Of a stretch of 36,603 nt of DNA, positions 572 to 35,918 are shown piece after piece. The notes beneath the pieces are model-generated. The model saw only the letters and a list, made by a program, of their open reading frames with translations. It was not told the origin of the DNA and searched no databases. Position numbers and translations under genes: made by a program. The stretch covers positions 1-36,603 of IMG/VR virus record IMGVR_UViG_2895706988_000001. One strand, written 5' to 3'. This stretch comes from a virus. How positions within the stretch are numbered: position 1 is the stretch's first letter; each line of letters opens with the position of its first letter.

Positions 572-577
572 GGTTAG

Positions 578-666
578 CGGAAGGTAAGGGATTTGAACCC
601 TTGAAACGCGGTTAGCGTTTACACACTTTCCAGGCGTGCTCCTTCGGCCAGCTCGGACAACCTTCC
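578..666 (-). tRNA. tRNA-Ser (anticodon GGA), long variable arm, no encoded CCA
   Basis: The reverse complement folds as a cloverleaf: acceptor GGAAGGT/ACCTTCC, anticodon loop CUGGAAA, T-arm AGGGTTCAAATCCCT. Confidence 0.9.
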
Positions 667-671
667 TAATT

Positions 672-704
672 AAAAAAATCAGAAGCGATATTTCACTTCT
701 GATT
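672..704 (-). terminator. Terminator-like hairpin between tRNA-Glu and tRNA-Ser
   Basis: 9-bp stem aatcagaag/cttctgatt (677-704), followed on the minus strand by UUUUUUA (plus-strand A-run 672-678). Confidence 0.6.
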
Positions 705-707
705 ATA

Positions 708-779
708 TGACCCCTACGGGATTCGAACCCGTGTTACCGCCGTGAAAGGGCGGTGTCTTAACCGCTTGACCAAGGGGCC
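708..779 (-). tRNA. tRNA-Glu (anticodon UUC)
   Basis: Reverse complement GGCCCCTTGGTCAAGCGG...; anticodon loop CUUUCAC; T-arm GGGTTCGAATCCC. Confidence 0.93.
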
Positions 780-783
780 TAAA

Positions 784-858
784 TGGCTCCACAGGTAGGA
801 CTCGAACCTACGACCGATCGGTTAACAGCCGATAGCTCTACCACTGAGCTACTGTGGA
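784..858 (-). tRNA. tRNA-Asn (anticodon GUU), CCA encoded
   Basis: Reverse complement TCCACAGTAGCTCAGTGGTAGAGC...; anticodon loop CUGUUAA; ends ...GGAGCCA. Confidence 0.93.
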
Positions 859-864
859 TAATGA

Positions 865-938
865 TGGAGCGGGTGATCGGAATCGAACCGACAACATCAG
901 CTTGGAAGGCTGAGGTTTTACCACTAAACTACACCCGC
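865..938 (-). tRNA. tRNA-Gly (anticodon UCC), CCA encoded
   Basis: Reverse complement GCGGGTGTAGTTTAGTGGTAAAAC...; anticodon loop CUUCCAA. Confidence 0.93.
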
Positions 939-945
939 TAATCAA

Positions 946-1022
946 TGGGGCGACTGATGGGAATCGAACCCACGAGTGTCGGAACCACAATCCGATGCGT
1001 TAACCACTTCGCCACAATCGCC
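946..1022 (-). tRNA. tRNA-His (anticodon GUG) with extra 5' G(-1), CCA encoded
   Basis: Reverse complement G-GCGATTGTGGCGAAGTGG...; anticodon loop UUGUGGU; 3' end ...CAGTCGC-C-CCA. Confidence 0.93.
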
Positions 1023-1037
1023 TTGCATAATAAAAGA

Positions 1038-1110
1038 TGGCTCAGGACGGAATCGAACCGCCGACACAAGGATTTTCAATCCTTTGCTCTACCGACTGAG
1101 CTACTGAGCC
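1038..1110 (-). tRNA. tRNA-Phe (anticodon GAA), CCA encoded
   Basis: Reverse complement GGCTCAGTAGCTCAGTCGGTAGAGC...; anticodon loop UUGAAAA. Confidence 0.93.
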
Positions 1111-1115
1111 AAACA

Positions 1116-1191
1116 TGGCGGTCCCGACGGGAATCGAACCCGCGATCTCCTGCGTGACAGGCAGGCATGTTAACCGCTACACCACGGGACC
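1116..1191 (-). tRNA. tRNA-Asp (anticodon GUC), CCA encoded
   Basis: Reverse complement GGTCCCGTGGTGTAGCGGTTAACA...; anticodon loop CUGUCAC. Confidence 0.93.
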
Positions 1192-1199
1192 ACTAATAA

Positions 1200-1273
<74 letters not shown>

Positions 1274-1311
1274 ATAATATTAAATAATGTCTCAAAAAAG
1301 AGTACTTATAT

Positions 1312-1636: not shown

Positions 1637-2302
1637 TTATAAATATCTTTTAATGCTTCTATTAACATAGTTATCTACATTAATATCATACATCATCATG
1701 AAAAATAACTCTTCATCTTCTTCTTTATCTTTACGTTTGAAATATACTTGTCTTGCATGAGAATTTAAATCAGGTATCTCTATATAGTATTCATCATTTA
1801 CTTTAAATATATTTTCTTCTACTTCTTTATAGTATTTTGAAAACTCTTCTTTTATTCTTTTTATTTCATCAGCACGTAGAGCTAACTCAAACTTTTCCAT
1901 TTCAAATAATGCTTCTTCAACTGATTCACCTTTATATAAAGTGTCAACTAACGTATCTTTAACTTTATCATGAACATACATTTCAATTTGTTCACTATTC
2001 TCTTTAATAGCTACATTGTATTTGTTATTAATAAATATTTTTAAATACTTTTCTCCTTCAATTAAATTTTCATTATCTTTTTGTCTATAGCTTAACTCTT
2101 CTTTTACCTTATTGAATAATTCCATTTTCTCCATCTCCTTATATAATTTATATAATTGTTCAGCTTTTACTAAAGTGATGTTATCTAAACTTCTCTCACC
2201 TTTTCTAATTCTATGGATTGTCGATTGATCTACACCGCTCAAAGTCGCGATTTTGTTGCTGGATAAATCGCTGTCTAATAATTTTTGAATATTTTCTCTC
2301 AT
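1637..2302 (-). CDS. HTH DNA-binding protein with uncharacterised about 165-aa C-terminal domain (second gene of post-lysin cassette)
   Basis: 221-aa ORF. The N-terminus SNKIATLSGVDQSTIHRIRKGERSLD is a helix-turn-helix motif. The C-terminal part is acidic/lysine-rich with no recognisable family. Two 60-nt blocks (1801-1860 and 1981-2040) contain 11/60 G+C each. Confidence 0.75.
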   Translation of the reverse strand: MRENIQKLLDSDLSSNKIATLSGVDQSTIHRIRKGERSLDNITLVKAEQLYKLYKEMEKMELFNKVKEELSYRQKDNENLIEGEKYLKIFINNKYNVAIKENSEQIEMYVHDKVKDTLVDTLYKGESVEEALFEMEKFELALRADEIKRIKEEFSKYYKEVEENIFKVNDEYYIEIPDLNSHARQVYFKRKDKEEDEELFFMMMYDINVDNYVNRSIKRYL

Positions 2303-2321
2303 GCTAATTCTCTCCTTTTTA

Positions 2322-2717
2322 TTATGCTACTAAAACTGATTTTGGTGACCACATTTCAATATTTCCGTATTCAGTATCGAATGACACTAATACTGCTTTT
2401 TCTGTTTCTCTAATTACTTTTGAACCTGAACATTCATTTAAAACTGCGTATGCTTCATTTTGAGATAAGTTTTTGCGAATGATCCAAGCAGGAATGCCCT
2501 CAACATTTTGGTCTTTTTTAACTTCGACTTTAGGATAAGTTAAACGAGCTGCTGCACTATAGATAGCTTCAGCACCAAAACGCTTTTTATTGTAAGTTTT
2601 AACTTGTCTCCACACTTCTTTTAAAGCAAGTGATAAAGCGATTGCGTAATCTTCTACGAATTCAACGATTTGCTTAGCGATTTTGTGAGCTGATACCATC
2701 ATTTGTTTTTTAGTCAT
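2322..2717 (-). CDS. Hypothetical protein (first gene of post-lysin cassette)
   Basis: ATG at 2717 is preceded by AGGAG. The ORF-track start at 2726 is a TTG. 131 aa, no family recognised. Confidence 0.75.
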   Translation of the reverse strand: MTKKQMMVSAHKIAKQIVEFVEDYAIALSLALKEVWRQVKTYNKKRFGAEAIYSAAARLTYPKVEVKKDQNVEGIPAWIIRKNLSQNEAYAVLNECSGSKVIRETEKAVLVSFDTEYGNIEMWSPKSVLVA

Positions 2718-2765
2718 TTTAACCAATCTCCTTTTTAAATGTTGTTTGCTGTTCCTTATATTTAT

Positions 2766-3073: not shown

Positions 3074-3838
3074 TTACTTAAATACTTTATTCACTTTCAT
3101 TCTTCCTAGCCATATCCAATCGTTTGAGCCTTTTCCTGTAAGATTACCTGTATAAATTCTTCCCCAACCATTGTGGATTTCAAAGATATATACTACATCT
3201 CCAGGCTTTAGTTCATATCCAGCTTTACGATTCCAATTGAAACCTTTAATACGATTACCAGAACGCTTTCTTACTTCTGCTCCTAGGTTATCAATCGTAC
3301 CTGTAACATAAGCAGTTAATGAGCGACCTCTATTGACCGCAGAATTAAATGGTAATGTGACTGTTGAATACTTCGTACTTTTTTGTGGTGCTTTCTTCTT
3401 AATAGAAGTAAATAGCGTTTCGTTTTTATAATTTGGTCTAATAAAGTGGCTGATCCCTGAGCAATCATCCCATCTTAAAGTTGCTGGTGTTCTCGCCTGT
3501 CCGTCCCAATTCTGCTCTAGCACCATACATCCATTTAAATTACCGCTATTGTACACTAAAGCGATATGTCCAAATCTATTATCAAATGCGCCACGAGTAA
3601 AGACTGCTATATCTCCACGTTGTTGTTGGAATGATGGTGTATTTTCATACACTGTAAACTGACCTTTGAAATCGTTATTGATGGCATCGCGCGCATTACC
3701 CCACATTCTAATTCCTGTAAGCCAGTAGACGTAATCTACAGTTAAATCCATGCACTGCATTCCGTATACACCATCGAAGTTTATATATTTGCCAACGTAC
3801 CAATCTATACGATTACTAGCTTCTGAATAAGTTTTCAT
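3074..3838 (-). CDS. Endolysin, N-terminal CHAP peptidase + C-terminal SH3b-like wall-binding domain
   Basis: CHAP signature (Cys in GMQCMDL, His in FGHIALV) and an SH3b-like C-terminus (GDVVYIFEIHNGWGRIY). It lies directly downstream of the holin. Confidence 0.9.
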   Translation of the reverse strand: MKTYSEASNRIDWYVGKYINFDGVYGMQCMDLTVDYVYWLTGIRMWGNARDAINNDFKGQFTVYENTPSFQQQRGDIAVFTRGAFDNRFGHIALVYNSGNLNGCMVLEQNWDGQARTPATLRWDDCSGISHFIRPNYKNETLFTSIKKKAPQKSTKYSTVTLPFNSAVNRGRSLTAYVTGTIDNLGAEVRKRSGNRIKGFNWNRKAGYELKPGDVVYIFEIHNGWGRIYTGNLTGKGSNDWIWLGRMKVNKVFK

Positions 3839-3840
3839 AC

Positions 3841-4092
3841 CTACTTCATCCCTTCATCTTTTAATACTTCTTCTTGTTTTCGTGCTTTTTTTGTGATGAT
3901 ATAGCTGTTCTTATACACTCCATATGCGACTAATCCGAATGGCACTAGCGTGTTTAAAAATACGACTAGCGCATTCACACGATCTGGATTTATCCATTCA
4001 ACTGATAGCCCGTAGCTGTAAAGTAATGTATATAAAGCACCTAACATTCCTCCGAATAAAGCGATGTATTGTTTCAATTTATCTTGTGTCAC
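3841..4092 (-). CDS. Holin
   Basis: 83 aa with two hydrophobic helices and a charged C-terminal tail (KKARKQEEVLKDEGMK). It abuts the endolysin. Confidence 0.85.
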   Translation of the reverse strand: MTQDKLKQYIALFGGMLGALYTLLYSYGLSVEWINPDRVNALVVFLNTLVPFGLVAYGVYKNSYIITKKARKQEEVLKDEGMK

Positions 4093-22687: not shown

Positions 22688-22813
22688 GGGGGGTGGGGTT
22701 ATACGCGAGATACTGAAATTTCTTCGAAATCGAGCCCTGCACCGTTTCCCACGACTTCATTTGAGGCCGAAAGTTTTTTGACGGGGGGTATGTTTTGATT
22801 TCTTGAAATTTCT
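22688..22813. other. Candidate cos / terminase recognition region
   Basis: Locally GC-rich in an AT-rich genome. GGGGGGT occurs twice (22688, 22783) and the palindrome-containing GAAATTTCT occurs twice (22715, 22805). T-tracts follow at 22814-22870. Confidence 0.5.
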
Positions 22814-22984
22814 CTTTTTGTTTTTATGTTTATTTTTTGTTTAAAAACTTTTTTGTTTTGTTTTTTACTTCATCTTTTTTCAAAATATTTTCTTCAAGTG
22901 ATTCAATACGTGTAATTCTTTGTATCTTTCGTTCCAGGTTCAATGTCATCTGATTGATCATAGGCTTTAATGGATGTTCTTTTA

Positions 22985-23302
22985 TTACCATCGTTCGTCG
23001 TTCCATTGTTTCACCCTCTTCTGATATCTATCATGTTTCTTGTTATGACATTTAATACATAACGTGATTAAGTTACTGTCTACTAATGCAAGTTCGGGTC
23101 TGTCTTGCAGCTCTTCGATATGGTCAACGTCTAAGTACTTATGCTTAGTGCCTTGATTAAATCTATTCAAGTCAACTGTCACCTTTCCCTGCTTCTTGCA
23201 CTCTTGACATTCATAGTTGTCGCGCTTCAGTATCTCGTCTCGCTTACGTCTCCACGGTCTACTCTTATAAAACTTTATTCTTTCCTTCACCGTCTCATAC
23301 AT
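22985..23302 (-). CDS. HNH endonuclease (packaging-associated)
   Basis: ATG 23302 is preceded by AAGGAG. 105 aa with CQECKK...DHIEEL...CIKCHNKKH (HNH/zinc motifs). Confidence 0.88.
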   Translation of the reverse strand: MYETVKERIKFYKSRPWRRKRDEILKRDNYECQECKKQGKVTVDLNRFNQGTKHKYLDVDHIEELQDRPELALVDSNLITLCIKCHNKKHDRYQKRVKQWNDERW

Positions 23303-23363
23303 AAGAGTTAAGCTCCTTAATCTAGATACATAATGGATCACAATCCTTCCTGCTTATATCAAG

Positions 23364-23397
23364 CCAAAAGAAAAGACACCAACATGAGTTGATGTCT
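23364..23397 (-). terminator. Strong intrinsic terminator between accessory cassette and HNH gene
   Basis: 10-bp stem (23374-23397) that is perfect in minus-strand RNA, including one G-U pair. Followed by UUUCUUUUGG. Confidence 0.8.
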
Positions 23398-23435
23398 GTT
23401 TATAATTATCTACAATATAATATTACTACGTTTTA

Positions 23436-23486
23436 ATTATAAAAGTGTTCGTTATTTGTTCGGAAAAAGTTCGTGAAAAGTTCGTG
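23436..23486 (-). promoter_or_regulatory. Four helically phased GTTCG repeats abutting a TATAAT box (candidate activator-dependent late promoter)
   Basis: GTTCG starts at 23447, 23458, 23469 and 23480, an exact 11-bp period. The last two units are identical 11-mers AAAAGTTCGTG. The minus-strand TATAAT is at 23441-23436 with no -35 consensus. Confidence 0.45.
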
Positions 23487-23498
23487 TTAAACAACTTA

Positions 23499-24245
23499 TC
23501 AATTACTTTTTACCTTAAAATCTGTCATCAATTCAAACTCCATAATGTCATAATGTTTTCCATTTATCCATTCAGTATATCTTCTTATATAGCCTACTAT
23601 AAGTTTTAAGTTGGTGATTTTATTTCTTCCATAAATATTATTACTTTTTATCTCTATATTTAATATTGGCGGTCTTGAAATCACTCCAATTTTATATAAG
23701 TTTAATTGAATAATAAATTGTTCAGGTATATCTATTGGTATCACGAAATCTTTTGGAATACTTTCGTAATAATATAACTGTCTAGATGAATTGGGTATCT
23801 CAAAGGAAACTGATCTATCAGAAGATCTATACTTGAAAAGAGTCATATCATCTGATTTCTTTATCATATCTCTTTCTTCATCAATATTTAAATTTACTAT
23901 TGAATCGAATCTTACAGTTATAGATACGTTTGTTGCAATGGACTCCCCTATATTTCTAATATATATTAATGGCAGATCATTATCATCATATAATAATGGT
24001 ATATTTGGTCTCATCCAAATAGGCACTTCGCCCTTTGATTCAGAATATCTCTCCCAATCTTCTAAAGAGTTCCACCCTAGTAATGGTGAATTATGATAGA
24101 TGTGTCCAATTTCTGAATAAGTTTTATACTTATAAATATCAATAAAAAAATAATTTTCATACTTTTTTCTGCTGTCATTAATAGTAACAATCAAACTCAA
24201 TATAGCTATCAGCCACGGAATACTATTCTCGAAAAAATTTAACAT
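23499..24245 (-). CDS. Hypothetical membrane-anchored protein (accessory cassette gene 2)
   Basis: 248 aa with a single N-terminal TM helix (IPWLIAILSLIVTI). The rest is beta-rich and no family was recognised. RBS GAAAGGAAA. 60-nt blocks 23521-23580 and 23641-23700 have 17 and 15 G+C. Confidence 0.8.
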   Translation of the reverse strand: MLNFFENSIPWLIAILSLIVTINDSRKKYENYFFIDIYKYKTYSEIGHIYHNSPLLGWNSLEDWERYSESKGEVPIWMRPNIPLLYDDNDLPLIYIRNIGESIATNVSITVRFDSIVNLNIDEERDMIKKSDDMTLFKYRSSDRSVSFEIPNSSRQLYYYESIPKDFVIPIDIPEQFIIQLNLYKIGVISRPPILNIEIKSNNIYGRNKITNLKLIVGYIRRYTEWINGKHYDIMEFELMTDFKVKSN

Positions 24246-24275
24246 CTTAGTTTCCTTTCAACGTTAAATAAATTC

Positions 24276-24725
24276 TTACAATTTATCAAGAATAGCTTCA
24301 TAGTGTTTTACAACCTCATCTTCAAGTATGAAATCCGTTCCATCACTCATTCTTACTCTTTCTTTTTCATCTACGATATATTCAATACATACAACTTCAT
24401 CAGATTTAGAAGAACTAATATTAGCTGTTACAATTCCATTCTTCTCATTAGAATCCGATTGTTTGTACATAAGTTTGACCCATTTACTGATTGGATAGTC
24501 TTTTACAATAATCCAAGGGTGTAGATCCGTTTGATTTATATTTATTTCGAATTTCTTTTGATATAATTCCCTACTCATTTTTGGTAGATAACTACTAAAT
24601 TTATTTATTAATTGTCTTTCTGCCTGGATTAATTTTGCAGTTCTTAAAGTCTCTCTCTCTTGATTTTCTTTTTCTTTTTCTTTTCTTAAATCATATTTTC
24701 TATTTGCATCATCAAATAATCCCAT
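24276..24725 (-). CDS. Hypothetical protein with charged coiled-coil N-terminus (accessory cassette gene 1)
   Basis: ATG 24725 is preceded by AGGAGTGG. The ORF-track start 24734 is a GTG. 149 aa, no family recognised. Confidence 0.8.
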   Translation of the reverse strand: MGLFDDANRKYDLRKEKEKENQERETLRTAKLIQAERQLINKFSSYLPKMSRELYQKKFEININQTDLHPWIIVKDYPISKWVKLMYKQSDSNEKNGIVTANISSSKSDEVVCIEYIVDEKERVRMSDGTDFILEDEVVKHYEAILDKL

Positions 24726-24751
24726 ATTAACCACTCCTAATAAATTTAGTT

Positions 24752-24783
24752 GAGTTATTCATATCTAATATTGTGTATAACTC
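24752..24783. repeat. Site L: quasi-palindrome 13-6-13 (GAGTTATTCATAT ctaata TTGTGTATAACTC)
   Basis: The half-sites are inverted copies of GAGTTAT(T/A)CA. The site lies 27 nt upstream of the cassette start codon. Confidence 0.85.
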
Positions 24784-24837
24784 ACTATTACATTATAACC
24801 CTATATGTATCAATACTTCTAGAAGTTATCTGAAAAT

Positions 24838-24868
24838 TAGTTATACATAGCTTAAATATGAATAACTC
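24838..24868. repeat. Site R: quasi-palindrome 13-5-13 (TAGTTATACATAG cttaa ATATGAATAACTC), inverted relative to site L
   Basis: The outer 13-mers of L and R are perfect reverse complements (24752-24764 vs 24856-24868). The inner 9-mers are also perfect reverse complements (24774-24782 vs 24839-24847). Confidence 0.85.
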
Positions 24869-24918
24869 TTTATGTGACTAAAGTATTTTTATGTTTAAAT
24901 CTTTAGATTCATATGCAT

Positions 24919-24946
24919 AAAAAAAGACCTGAATATTATTCAAGTC
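24919..24946 (-). terminator. Intrinsic terminator ending the early/middle operon
   Basis: 8-bp stem (24926-24946) that is perfect in minus-strand RNA with one G-U pair, followed by seven U. Confidence 0.85.
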
Positions 24947-24947
24947 C

Positions 24948-25118
24948 TCATTTCCATCTCCTAGAATTATTTTTAAGTAGCTCTAATACTAAAATAAAAT
25001 CTTCTCTATTCATTCTCGGATAACGATCTGCAAGCTTATCTACAATCTGTTTAACATCTCTAATACTTTTTATATTATTACCATATAAACCGACATCATG
25101 AAAATCTCTAACATCCAT
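24948..25118 (-). CDS. Small hypothetical protein (56 aa)
   Basis: ATG 25118 is preceded by AGGAGG at 6-nt spacing. The ORF-track start is upstream and lacks an RBS. Confidence 0.65.
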   Translation of the reverse strand: MDVRDFHDVGLYGNNIKSIRDVKQIVDKLADRYPRMNREDFILVLELLKNNSRRWK

Positions 25119-25128
25119 TTTAGTCCTC

Positions 25129-25677
25129 CTAATATACAAATTCAAAGTTAGTCATAGCTTCGTCTATGCTATCCTGTGTTATACCAATGTATTTTAATGT
25201 TATAGCTTCACTACTATGATTAAATATCTTCTGCAGTGTAGCAACGTCTTTCGTTCCTTTGTAATAATGATATCCAAATGTTTTACGCATGCTGTGTGTT
25301 CCAATGGATTCCAGGTCAAAGTAATCTGTTAGCTCTCTTAATATCTTATATGACATGTCTCTGCTAATAGGCTTGTTAAATCCTTGTCTAGATTTAATTA
25401 TAAATTCTTCTGGCGGCTTACCTTTAATAAAATCATTGAGCGGTCCTTTTAAGTTCTTATGGATCACTATCTTACGTTGCTTACCTGTCTTTTGTTCTCG
25501 TAAACGAATCGTGTTGCCCTGCACTGATGAAACTCTTAACTGTAGAATATCAGATATTCTTAGACCACAATATATTCCAATCAAAAATAGAATATAATTA
25601 CGCTCATTCTTTTCTTTCAGATGTCTTTCAATGGCTATTATCATATCTGGATTACGAATAGGCTCTACAAAGTTCAT
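25129..25677 (-). CDS. Tyrosine recombinase-like protein, catalytic domain only (not the lysogeny integrase)
   Basis: 182 aa. Candidate catalytic residues are R40 (GLRISD), K63/K66 (EQKTGK), H128-x-x-R131 (HSMRKTFG), H154 (NHSS) and Y163 (LKYIG). There is no N-terminal core-binding domain. The start overlaps the ArpU stop (TAATG). Confidence 0.8.
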   Translation of the reverse strand: MNFVEPIRNPDMIIAIERHLKEKNERNYILFLIGIYCGLRISDILQLRVSSVQGNTIRLREQKTGKQRKIVIHKNLKGPLNDFIKGKPPEEFIIKSRQGFNKPISRDMSYKILRELTDYFDLESIGTHSMRKTFGYHYYKGTKDVATLQKIFNHSSEAITLKYIGITQDSIDEAMTNFEFVY

Positions 25678-26126
25678 TACTCAGCCACCTCCGAATACTC
25701 TTCTAATCCCAGGTAGAAAGCAAGTCGTATAATAGCATCATTCTTAATCTCATAGTACTTCGTCTTCCCTACACCTAATTCTGTATAAATATCAACATCT
25801 ATACCTCGTTCTTCCTGAAGATACTTATTAACGATAATATACTTTTCGTCAGGCTTTAAGTTGTCGATAGCATTATGCAGCTTATCCATTAGTTGCTGCC
25901 TTTCTATCATCATTTGCTCACGTTCAATATTCTTTGCTACACTCGACTCAATCTTATTCAGATCCATCACAGTTGTTGGTGGTTCTAAACTAAATGACTG
26001 AGTGACAGATGGATAACTTCTGATTGGCATAAGGCTTAATAGTCTGTTGTACTTGTTAAAAAGGTTATATACATTCTTTCTTGTTTGAATAAAATCCAGG
26101 TTCTTAATCTCTAATAATAAAGTCAT
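25677..26126 (-). CDS. ArpU-family late-gene transcriptional regulator
   Basis: 149 aa. The C-terminal HTH-like ELGVGKTKYYEIKNDAIIRLAFYLGL and overall pattern match ArpU/RinA-type phage late activators. Confidence 0.8.
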   Translation of the reverse strand: MTLLLEIKNLDFIQTRKNVYNLFNKYNRLLSLMPIRSYPSVTQSFSLEPPTTVMDLNKIESSVAKNIEREQMMIERQQLMDKLHNAIDNLKPDEKYIIVNKYLQEERGIDVDIYTELGVGKTKYYEIKNDAIIRLAFYLGLEEYSEVAE

Positions 26127-34899: not shown

Positions 34900-34930
34900 T
34901 CAATCCCCTCCTTATTCAATTATTAATATT

Positions 34931-34959
34931 ATATTATCCGATTTTTTTCGGACTGTCAA
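34931..34959 (-). promoter_or_regulatory. Early lytic promoter (P-cro) with operator in its spacer
   Basis: Minus strand reads TTGACA (34959-34954), a 17-nt spacer, then TAATAT (34936-34931). The spacer contains TCCGA-N6-TCGGA (34937-34952). Confidence 0.8.
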
Positions 34960-34974
34960 ACGAATTAGTTCGGA
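34959..34974. promoter_or_regulatory. Imperfect operator AACGA-N6-TCGGA
   Basis: 8/10 match to the half-site consensus. Its centre is 22 bp from the centre of the P-cro operator. Confidence 0.45.
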
Positions 34975-35012
34975 AGTTAATATAATAATTCCGTTTTTTT
35001 CCGTATTTTATA

Positions 35013-35041
35013 TTGTTATTATTCACTTTTTTTATTATACT
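35013..35041 (+). promoter_or_regulatory. Repressor (lysogeny) promoter
   Basis: TTGTTA (35013-35018), a 17-nt spacer, then TATACT (35036-35041). It lies about 35 nt upstream of the repressor ATG. Confidence 0.6.
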
Positions 35042-35075
35042 TAAGAAAAAATAATACTTAGAAAGGTGAATATCC

Positions 35076-35477
35076 ATGGTTGATAGAGACATGCCTTTAA
35101 AAAAGAAGATATCCTTTAATATTGAAAAGTACAGAAAAGAATTCGGTTGGACCCAGAAAGAATTAGCAGATAAAGCACAAATACCGAAGAGTACTATGTC
35201 CGACTATATTAACTGCAAAACTTTAATTAATGCTGGAAATGTTGAAAAACTAGCTAAAACTTTTAAAGTACAGAAATCTGATATAGATCCTTCTTTTGGA
35301 GATAAAGAAGAAAATAGATACGATATGGTACGTGAACTCGAACAAAAAGGGATTATCATTAATTTCTCAGATTATGAAGGTTTTGAGAGATTATCTGATG
35401 ATGAGAAGATAGAATTCCAAAAGAAAATTGAAGAAGCGGTTCAATTCGAACTTTTTAAGCGCAACAATCAAAAGTAG
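35076..35477 (+). CDS. CI-like XRE-family repressor without S24 autopeptidase domain
   Basis: 133 aa with HTH motif WTQKELADKAQIPKSTMSDYIN. The C-terminus is short and acidic with no Ser/Lys peptidase motif. Confidence 0.85.
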   Translation: MVDRDMPLKKKISFNIEKYRKEFGWTQKELADKAQIPKSTMSDYINCKTLINAGNVEKLAKTFKVQKSDIDPSFGDKEENRYDMVRELEQKGIIINFSDYEGFERLSDDEKIEFQKKIEEAVQFELFKRNNQK

Positions 35478-35492
35478 TAAGGAGATAATCTT

Positions 35493-35918
35493 ATGAGTGT
35501 TAAAGAGATATATTATAATCGAGGGATAAAAAATATAGAAGATTTGAATATTGATAATGTTGCAATGGCCTTTAACATCTCACTTCTCAAAGATTATCCA
35601 TTAGATGTCAGAGTAACATCAAATGATATAGATATTATTATGCTACAAACAAAAGATCCTATATCTATGACAGAGACTTTTTTTCACGAACTAGCTCATG
35701 TTTTGCGGCATGGACATACTCATATAAGTGAGAGTTACAGAAAGTACTGTGAAGGCCAGGCTAATAGACTTATGTATGAATTAGCTATACCTGATTTTAT
35801 GATCGATGAAAACGATATAGATTATAAGCATTTATGTACAAAATTCAAAGTAACCGAAGAATTTGCCCTAAAGAGAGTAGAACAACTAATACATAAAAAT
35901 TTATGGAATTCTGCATAG
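35493..35918 (+). CDS. ImmA/IrrE-family zinc metallopeptidase
   Basis: 141 aa with the HExxH motif FFHELAHVLRH. It lies immediately downstream of the XRE repressor, as in ImmR/ImmA pairs. Confidence 0.85.
   Translation: MSVKEIYYNRGIKNIEDLNIDNVAMAFNISLLKDYPLDVRVTSNDIDIIMLQTKDPISMTETFFHELAHVLRHGHTHISESYRKYCEGQANRLMYELAIPDFMIDENDIDYKHLCTKFKVTEEFALKRVEQLIHKNLWNSA

Follow-up and report, generated by a model that had tools for sequence, protein, structure and literature searches.

Two orphan genes as cargo of a variable slot between the late activator gene and the packaging genes of a Macrococcoides canis prophage

Introduction

Why should two very AT-rich genes of no recognizable family lie between the late activator and the packaging genes of a temperate phage? 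The question is raised by IMG/VR virus record IMGVR_UViG_2895706988_000001, analysed over its full 36,603 nucleotides (the window). Judged by its protein names, a tRNA cluster, and lysis and repressor genes, the window comprises the greater part of a Macrococcoides (Macrococcus) canis prophage. The phage genes are on the minus strand, except for lysogeny-control genes at the right end, and read on that strand the region of interest consists of ArpU, a 182-aa recombinase, an open reading frame (ORF) of 56 or 65 aa, a hairpin, the two genes (A and B here), a second hairpin, and HNH, terS and terL. An original prediction, made from the sequence before any searches, took A and B for a recently acquired, self-contained cassette, possibly an abortive-infection or exclusion system. 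Comparison with related prophages gives a somewhat different answer: on the evidence of sequence and alignment, A and B currently occupy, as cargo, a hypervariable accessory slot that is part of the backbone of Macrococcoides ArpU-type siphoviral prophages. The slot, its boundaries, the diversity of its contents, the dispensability of its cargo and the separate occurrence of A-type and B-type genes can all be seen directly in the aligned loci; what the cargo does is a matter of probabilities, which are weighed below. The genes in question are:

25677 to 26126, minus strand: ArpU-family late transcriptional activator gene (TIGR01637 phage_arpU, 99.6 bits, cut-off 43.1; phrog_248, E 1.2e-28)
24276 to 24725, minus strand: gene A, 149 aa (ORF call)
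23499 to 24245, minus strand: gene B, 248 aa (ORF call)
23485 to 24752, minus strand: variable cargo unit of the slot (ribosome-binding site, A, 30-nt spacer, B), delimited by BLASTN against a related locus, L044
22985 to 23341, minus strand: HNH endonuclease gene, first of the packaging/late operon (PF01844, E 8e-11; phrog_119, E 3e-26)

The slot and its occupants

Related loci (numbered with the prefix L) were collected with one 20-mer from each flank as a probe, in IMG/VR and in genome, metagenome and Logan loci. In IMG/VR the two 20-mers matched 17 and 15 stretches, to which the other sources added further loci; scanning IMG/VR a second time, with a scaffold pattern, gave nothing more. The scaffold is common to about 25 related prophage loci of M. 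canis and M. caseolyticum, with flank-to-flank distances between 530 and 1371 bp. All have ArpU upstream, with or without the recombinase, and HNH-terS-terL downstream. The ArpU gene is the end of the early/middle operon backbone, and its product is 90-93% identical in related loci. The two genes had been described as lying between the late activator and the packaging genes, which is right, but ArpU does not directly adjoin them, the recombinase gene and the 56/65-aa ORF lying between.

Within this frame, the relatives have at least 12 different gene sets (the position is called slot 2, a second variable position being described below). A-like soluble proteins are of 135, 146, 149, 151, 160 or 168 aa, B-like ones with an N-terminal anchor are of 179, 254, 282, 284 or 300 aa, and further types have 145 aa, 242 aa, or 263 aa with two transmembrane (TM) segments. 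The idea that the ArpU-to-HNH gap is a hotspot, for which a survey of occupants had been suggested as a check, is strongly borne out by this variety.

The boundaries are clearest against L044, the nearest relative on both sides, which agrees with the window in its types of HNH, terS, terL and capsid, and whose slot contains a lone B-like gene of 282 aa. BLASTN matches cover window positions 22715-23484 (94.7% identity) and 24753-24896 (89.6%), with none between, and resume at 25129. Since homology to L044 stops at 23484 and resumes at 24753, the exchanged unit is 23485-24752, containing only the ribosome-binding site, A and B. The promoter region and terminator at first credited to the cassette itself are both conserved scaffold, which L044 shares while differing in 23485-24752 only.

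M. caseolyticum prophages L001-L005 carry the same A+B pair. Against these, BLASTN gives one sharp block at window positions 23401-24899 with 97.3-97.5% identity; in the same comparison the ArpU region is 92.6% and the replication genes 85-89% identical, and for the packaging and structural genes there is essentially no relationship in DNA sequence. The pair itself is 96-99.6% identical in prophages of the two species, and the same cargo is found on two unrelated packaging modules (HNH118/terS122/terL552 and HNH293/Terminase_4/terL564). With the cargo block well above the 85-93% of the neighbouring backbone, the pattern fits a recent exchange of cargo between species, and is consistent with the recent acquisition originally suspected. 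Such cargo would be swapped between phages presumably via homologous recombination in the conserved flanks.

Cargo genes alone and a natural deletion

The original prediction saw in the pair a membrane effector and its soluble partner. In its fullest form this would be a two-component abortive-infection or exclusion system with Rex-like logic, in which B, as membrane-anchored effector, would work together with A as sensor or regulator in the cytoplasm. The genes are 30 nt apart under one putative promoter and would be co-transcribed, and the pair has stayed intact, at the identity given above, in two species with different packaging modules. A-like and B-like genes are also found together in L010, though in reversed order and in separate slots; this locus and the window-type cassette are the only places where they co-occur. 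Elsewhere each type is found by itself. In L047 an A homologue (48% identity) is the sole gene between the flanks, and in L013, L017, L019, L023 and L040 the slot has no gene besides one of group A2 or A3. B-type genes are alone in L006, L012, L015, L033 and L044; L006, the contig encoding the B relative P0004, has both flanks as in the window, a B homologue and no gene A. These solitary occurrences weaken the effector-partner model, and on sequence grounds A and B are probably not an obligate pair. Nor is there similarity to RexA, RexB or any PADLOC model, and B has at most one marginal TM segment rather than the make-up of a multi-pass channel. A two-component system is accordingly an unlikely reading; A and B would instead be two stacked single-gene accessory functions.

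The cargo can also be lost. L027 and L012 are 100% identical save for an exact 788-bp deletion (L027, oriented, about 2940-2960 versus L012 10336-11124), which takes out the -10 element, palindrome 2 (both described below) and, from a cargo gene of 300 codons, the first 236. L027 is in effect a natural slot knockout of an otherwise identical locus, and it follows that the cargo is dispensable for prophage carriage.

Genes A and B

Both of the ORFs claimed for the region, of 149 and 248 aa, are present in the sequence, each preceded by an AGGA-type ribosome-binding site. At 26.75% G+C, 23401-24899 is the lowest of all 1.5-kb segments of the window (mean 34.5%, sd 2.8), with 28.2% for gene A and 27.3% for gene B. 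The claim of AT-richness is upheld in this respect, but the contrast drawn with 24-25 G+C per 60 nt in blocks of the capsid and ssb genes was overstated (whole-gene G+C is 35.8% for capsid and 38.1% for ssb).

Gene A is predicted to encode a soluble protein whose N-terminal region is helical and charged, and whose C-terminal part contains beta structure and closes with a helix. The product of gene B has an N-terminal hydrophobic segment (about residues 8-23) followed by RKK, the rest being beta-rich. No lipobox was seen in B. With RKK/RRR directly after the segment and no lysine or arginine before it, the positive-inside rule predicts that, if the segment is a membrane anchor, the beta-rich remainder probably faces the cytoplasm.

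Family searches do not place either protein. There was no significant match to A or B in Pfam, PHROGs, PADLOC or NCBIfam, none at E <= 10 for an alignment of B in a profile search against PDB sequences, and none among 50,697 phage records, whether searched by TBLASTN with A and B or by megablast with the region; their description as unrecognizable holds throughout these sources. In a word-indexed search of 5.8 billion clustered proteins, A was found in two clusters only (hypothetical proteins of M. canis and M. caseolyticum), with one close variant beyond self matches, and B only in its own cluster. A five-sequence profile of the B superfamily, run against the same 5.8 billion proteins, gave two distant B-like proteins from Macrococcoides, and an exhaustive HMMER search of 1.84 billion representatives gave one distant B relative, P0004 (E 7e-50). 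Among the sources searched, relatives recognizable by sequence are confined to Macrococcoides prophages for both A and B.

Between the cargo groups, HHalign gave one usable link (A1-A2): the N-terminal profile of A matches the A2 group with a probability of 66.8% and E 5.3e-5, at a score of 33.7 against a maximum of 21.9 in 30 shuffles. An RNIGxSxA motif weakly links B to 282-310-aa proteins from the same hotspot; the B1-B2 link, consisting of a short RNIG motif and weak BLAST chains, remains unproven. Foldseek of a B model against PDB returned generic beta-sandwich matches only (TM <= 0.28), which were discarded as meaningless.

Given that both proteins are orphans, are poorly predicted in structure and are taxonomically very restricted, they might be no more than the products of decaying or non-functional ORFs in AT-rich intergenic filler. 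The reading frames are nonetheless intact, with good ribosome-binding sites, and have full-length homologues at 42-48% identity without frameshifts: B aligns with P0004 from end to end at about 42-43%, and A with its L047 homologue at 48%. Codon differences in B between the species are mainly synonymous (3-4, versus 1-3 non-synonymous, both small numbers). From the unbroken homologues and the mostly synonymous differences, A and B appear to be real genes. True decay looks otherwise in this family of loci, as the clean L027 deletion illustrates, and as an account of A and B it is very improbable.

The putative control region upstream of the cargo

Between the early/middle operon and the cargo lies a stretch of conserved scaffold with the following elements:

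24915 to 24949, minus strand: intrinsic terminator closing the early/middle operon, 12-bp stem and U-run (folding energy dG -12.7 kcal/mol, z -4.7)
24839 to 24867, minus strand: palindrome 1, AGTTATTCATA-N7-TATGTATAACT, upstream of the cargo promoter, conserved scaffold
24824 to 24838, minus strand: CodY-box-like element AATTTTCAGATAACT, between palindrome 1 and the -10, conserved scaffold
24792 to 24797, minus strand: consensus -10 TATAAT of a putative cargo promoter, invariant in all loci (sequence and alignment)
24753 to 24782, minus strand: palindrome 2, AGTTATACACA-N8-TATGAATAACT, just 3' of the -10, last conserved element before the cargo

The hairpin of the terminator occupies 24949-24923, and in the alignment most related loci have a hairpin and T-run at the matching place. 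Terminators had been claimed on both sides of the genes, and both are strong and stand out against shuffled sequences, this one and its downstream counterpart (dG -13.5, z -6.3).

The two palindromes, of 29-30 bp, bracket the invariant TATAAT. Their arm, AGTTATNCAYA, has four copies in the window where 0.42 would be expected, and all four lie within 24753-24867; in every related locus it is found at the same four positions and no others. Outside this stretch the prophage has no copy of the motif, the repressor/cro region included. Palindrome 2, if transcribed, could form a 5' stem-loop (dG -8.5, z -3.1); an Rfam scan of 22900-25300 gave no RNA family. The CodY-like element has the form AATTTTCAGA(A/T)AACT in the loci, and 24824-24838 is the sole match in the window to AATTTTCWGAAAATT with at most two mismatches (two in the window, one in most related loci). 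Matches with up to three mismatches are not enriched in the window. Nutritional control by a host regulator is a possible meaning of this box, which statistically is only a lead.

The repressor/cro intergenic region (34900-35075) has palindromes of its own, TCCGA-N7-TCGGA and CGAA-N4-TTCG. These are probably the immunity operators, and they are unlike those at the cargo promoter.

The palindromes were also considered as core sites of the 182-aa tyrosine recombinase, in inversion or integron-like capture. This is disfavoured, since their spacers share no sequence, no second site flanks the cargo, and the palindromes persist in loci without the recombinase. The recombinase is also unlikely, on sequence grounds, to be the palindrome-binding protein.

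Two position-invariant palindromes around a -10, unique to this promoter, could also belong to lytic-cycle cargo. A repressor acting on them would hold the promoter off in the lysogen, and after induction or infection A and B would serve in counter-defence or against satellites, inhibiting host defences or phage-inducible islands that target late transcription, in an arrangement resembling anti-CRISPR loci. Small, hypervariable orphan genes characterize anti-defence loci no less than defence loci. The slot is, moreover, at the junction of late activator and late promoter, and it is at this junction that staphylococcal islands interfere with late transcription. Set against this are the absence from the cargo, as far as family searches go, of any helix-turn-helix (HTH) or Aca-like regulator gene, and the absence of the palindrome motif from the repressor/cro region and elsewhere in the prophage. 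Double terminator insulation would be needless for a gene able to ride the early operon, a membrane anchor would be unusual in an inhibitor of cytoplasmic defence systems, and the adjacent slot holds in some loci a candidate defence pair, not an anti-defence gene. This reading, the main rival to the role in conflict between mobile elements considered below, is possible though rather unlikely.

The probable late promoter region downstream of the cargo

On the other side of the cargo, the scaffold continues with three elements:

23447 to 23485, minus strand: four direct repeats (A/C)CGAAC, starting at 23485, 23474, 23463 and 23452, in exact 11-bp phasing; scaffold
23436 to 23441, minus strand: TATAAT, candidate late-promoter -10, separated from the last repeat by 5 nt
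23364 to 23397, minus strand: hairpin and U-run, putative cargo terminator, within the leader of the late (HNH-terS-terL) operon (dG and z as given above)

The corresponding junctions of repeats, -10 and hairpin are at:

23364 to 23485 of the window, minus strand
11240 to 11376 of L001
3395 to 3560 of L040
2432 to 2580 of L033

Late-operon activation by RinA, LtrC and ArpU depends on their binding to short direct repeats, two to four in number, that precede terS; all three require these repeats in order to activate terS (Quiles-Puchalt et al., 2013; PMC3753634). In every locus type of the present survey, three to six repeats of the form (A/G/C)CGAAC(T)TTT follow the cargo. Where the downstream flank is shared, the aligned -10 is TATAAT, TATTAT or TATGAT; L019 and L040 have a different promoter-like sequence after the repeats, TTGACT-18-TATAAG. 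Because the repeats are conserved together with ArpU across phages with unrelated packaging modules, they are most likely the ArpU-binding sites of the late promoter. An alternative assignment as a cos or TerS-binding site was rejected, the repeats being shared by phages that have unrelated terS, terL and HNH genes and a common ArpU. If the repeats are ArpU sites, the slot lies between the activator gene and its own target promoter.

The downstream hairpin (23397-23374, with its U-run) stands directly before the HNH ribosome-binding site. The position of hairpin and T-run is kept in four sequence-unrelated versions of the junction, with 12 nt between the end of the U-run and the start codon of HNH in L001-type junctions. 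Since this terminator-like hairpin comes after the putative late promoter and before the first late gene, late transcripts must cross it. The arrangement hints at terminator-resistant ArpU-dependent transcription, or else at another role for the hairpin; read-through of a terminator is, to our knowledge, a property not described for Ltr activators.

That late transcripts must cross this hairpin in any case, together with the position of the cargo immediately upstream of the packaging genes, would also suit late-operon leader genes with a role in morphogenesis or packaging, transcribed with HNH-terS-terL late in the lytic cycle. Such genes would hardly be replaced by unrelated ones or deleted in otherwise near-identical phages, nor would one cargo be expected on two unrelated packaging modules. 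The candidate ArpU repeats are downstream, not upstream, of the cargo, and neither A nor B has a structural or packaging match in PHROGs. A late structural role is thus hardly credible.

Neighbouring genes and the rest of the prophage

Immediately upstream of the control region are two further optional or variable genes:

25129 to 25677, minus strand: tyrosine recombinase gene, 182 aa, optional backbone (PF00589, E 5.6e-22; phrog_216, E 2.2e-64)
24948 to 25145, minus strand: small ORF in variable slot 1, 65 aa from a TTG or 56 aa from an ATG, no family match

The recombinase gene overlaps the ArpU stop codon, and the catalytic R, H-x-x-R, H and Y are visible in its product. It is 97-98% identical in 13 of the related loci, in Macrococcus prophages whose ArpU is only 91-95% identical, and is absent from L001-L005, L011 and L023. 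Homologues with 55-59% identity are found in Bacillus phages phi105 and phIS3501 and in Streptococcus Javan and MissC phages, where they adjoin ArpU-type regulators, before HNH/terS.

Slot 1, between the recombinase and the cargo promoter, has only the 56/65-aa ORF in the window. In relatives it may hold a 72-aa gene, a 96-aa gene with a reverse-strand 251-aa gene, a 310-aa B-like gene, or PDC-M24, a candidate defence system of PADLOC. The PDC-M24 A+B pair is found in three loci, on the opposite strand, and encodes a 148-153-aa DUF6978 protein and a 269-aa DUF1828+DUF1829 protein (PDLC04539, E 1.9e-68; PDLC04538, E 2e-19). Its oriented coordinates are:

11460 to 12721 of L014, opposite strand
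1383 to 2644 of L015, opposite strand
965 to 2241 of L019, opposite strand

The remaining features identified in the window concern the ends of the prophage:

577 to 1274, minus strand: eight host tRNA genes (Ser, Glu, Asn, Gly, His, Phe, Asp, Met), adjoining the prophage end
1637 to 2726, minus strand: second AT-rich accessory region, between the endolysin gene and the host tRNA cluster
3074 to 4092: holin and CHAP/SH3b endolysin genes
35076 to 35918: HTH repressor and ImmA-type peptidase genes

The tRNA cluster probably marks the integration region. The second accessory region has a 221-aa ORF with 25.5% G+C and weak N-terminal HTH matches, and a 134-aa ORF of no family.

A possible role for the cargo

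The elements described above suggest how the slot may work. The backbone is ordered as an early-operon terminator, a conserved promoter region, the cargo, the ACGAAC repeats with their -10, and a hairpin before HNH-terS-terL. The scaffold promoter would transcribe the promoterless A and then B as one short mRNA ending at the 23397-23374 hairpin. The upstream terminator would uncouple this mRNA from the early operon, and the downstream hairpin would keep cargo transcription out of the late genes. A gene expressed from an otherwise silent prophage would profit most from such a layout. Attached by its N-terminal anchor, B would work on the cytoplasmic side of the membrane.

What the cargo would be for is suggested by association. 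Hypervariability, the presence of membrane-anchored proteins among the occupants, and PDC-M24 in the adjacent slot of three loci are the grounds for proposing that slot cargo acts in conflict with other phages or mobile elements, through exclusion or abortive infection. We put the chances of this at about even.

A number of observations weigh against this proposal or the picture behind it. None of the slot-2 cargo proteins matches any PADLOC defence model or Pfam family, and ten cargo proteins other than A and B likewise gave nothing significant in family searches. AlphaFold2 (AF2) models are poor, with pLDDT 52 for B and 48 for A. PDC-M24 is a candidate system only, and is in the neighbouring slot, not slot 2. 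There is no good -35 at 16-18 nt from the TATAAT at 24792-24797, and a generic promoter scan was not enriched over shuffles, so the cargo promoter is one that we infer. The palindromes are operator-like, and the promoter could be repressed in the lysogen and fire after induction, which would imply a lytic role. The reversed arrangement in L010 makes a functional link between A-like and B-like proteins possible.

The anchor of B is a further weak point. One N-terminal TM helix had been predicted, and a segment is there, but a borderline one: its best 19-residue Kyte-Doolittle mean is 1.77, and that of P0004 only 1.34. In addition, the NCBI form of B in M. canis (WP_133433638.1) is 231 aa long and is without the hydrophobic segment. 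The choice of start decides whether B is membrane-anchored, and concerns this stretch:

24195 to 24245, minus strand: N-terminal stretch of B, 248-aa versus 231-aa start

The 248-aa ATG start is the more likely one, given a good ribosome-binding site and the conservation of residues 1-17 with P0004.

A bolder joint reading is also conceivable, though we consider it improbable. The slot would be a regulated expression platform, in which one control region (palindromes, CodY-like element and invariant -10) and a single regulator serve a dozen or more unrelated orphan genes. Were this true, the A and B families would be new single-gene anti-phage or anti-satellite effectors found in Macrococcus phages only, and ArpU-dependent transcription would need to pass a terminator on its way to the first late gene.

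Comparison with known systems

Morons, first described in lambdoid phages, are extra genes of temperate phages with their own promoter and terminator, located between backbone genes. A and B resemble them in that close relatives have other genes, or none, at the position where some phages carry them, in being bracketed by a promoter-like region and a terminator, in their deviating base composition (26.75% versus 34.5% G+C), and in being dispensable. Unlike in morons, the promoter region and terminator here are backbone and the coding part alone is exchanged, so that the slot is a fixed platform rather than a self-contained insert.

The defence hotspots of P2-like prophages and P4-like satellites are likewise sites of variable cargo between conserved core genes. 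Conserved flanks, many mutually exclusive cargos and PDC-M24 in the adjacent slot of three loci are points in common. The present slot differs in belonging to Macrococcoides siphoviruses, in its location between a late activator gene and its putative promoter, and in its cargos, which match no known defence family and are single small genes rather than multi-gene systems. Lambda RexA/RexB and two-gene Abi systems are similar in that a soluble and a membrane-associated protein are encoded together in a prophage. There is no sequence similarity to RexA/RexB, B has one marginal segment as opposed to several TM helices, and the components separate in related phages.

In anti-CRISPR (acr-aca) loci, variable small orphan genes are expressed from a strong promoter that has inverted repeats beside it and is controlled through them. 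The slot is comparable in having a conserved putative promoter with two inverted-repeat elements and highly variable small orphan genes at a fixed phage position, but there is no aca-type HTH gene in or next to the operon, and the cargo includes membrane-anchored proteins. As to surface blockers of the Sie/Ltp superinfection-exclusion families, A and B have no match to them in PHROGs or Pfam, and the predicted cytoplasmic C-terminal domain of B would have the opposite orientation.

Phages with Ltr (RinA/LtrC/ArpU) activators are the closest parallel for the scaffold itself, with repeats upstream of the first packaging gene and a terminator between activator and late genes (PMC3753634). Two differences concern the layout. 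In the characterized Ltr phages the repeats are immediately distal to the ltr gene (PMC3753634), whereas here optional genes (recombinase, slot 1 and slot 2) put as much as some 2.2 kb between ArpU and the repeats; and the terminator-like hairpin here follows the putative late promoter rather than preceding it. In Streptococcus phage MissC, too, activator gene and repeats are adjacent, unlike in the window.

Significance

The slot is newly delineated; the class of prophage morons and hotspots to which it belongs is already known. Hypervariable prophage hotspots being well known, and the families being confined to one genus, its practical value is moderate. If the cargo acts in phage-phage or phage-host conflict, the slot would provide about a dozen compact orphan genes, mostly single, as candidates for defence or counter-defence. 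These would be candidate genes from Staphylococcaceae for which a native putative promoter and terminator are already defined. The design itself, in which coding cargo is exchanged within a fixed promoter-and-terminator scaffold that separates a late activator gene from its probable target, is one that could be searched for in other Gram-positive phages.

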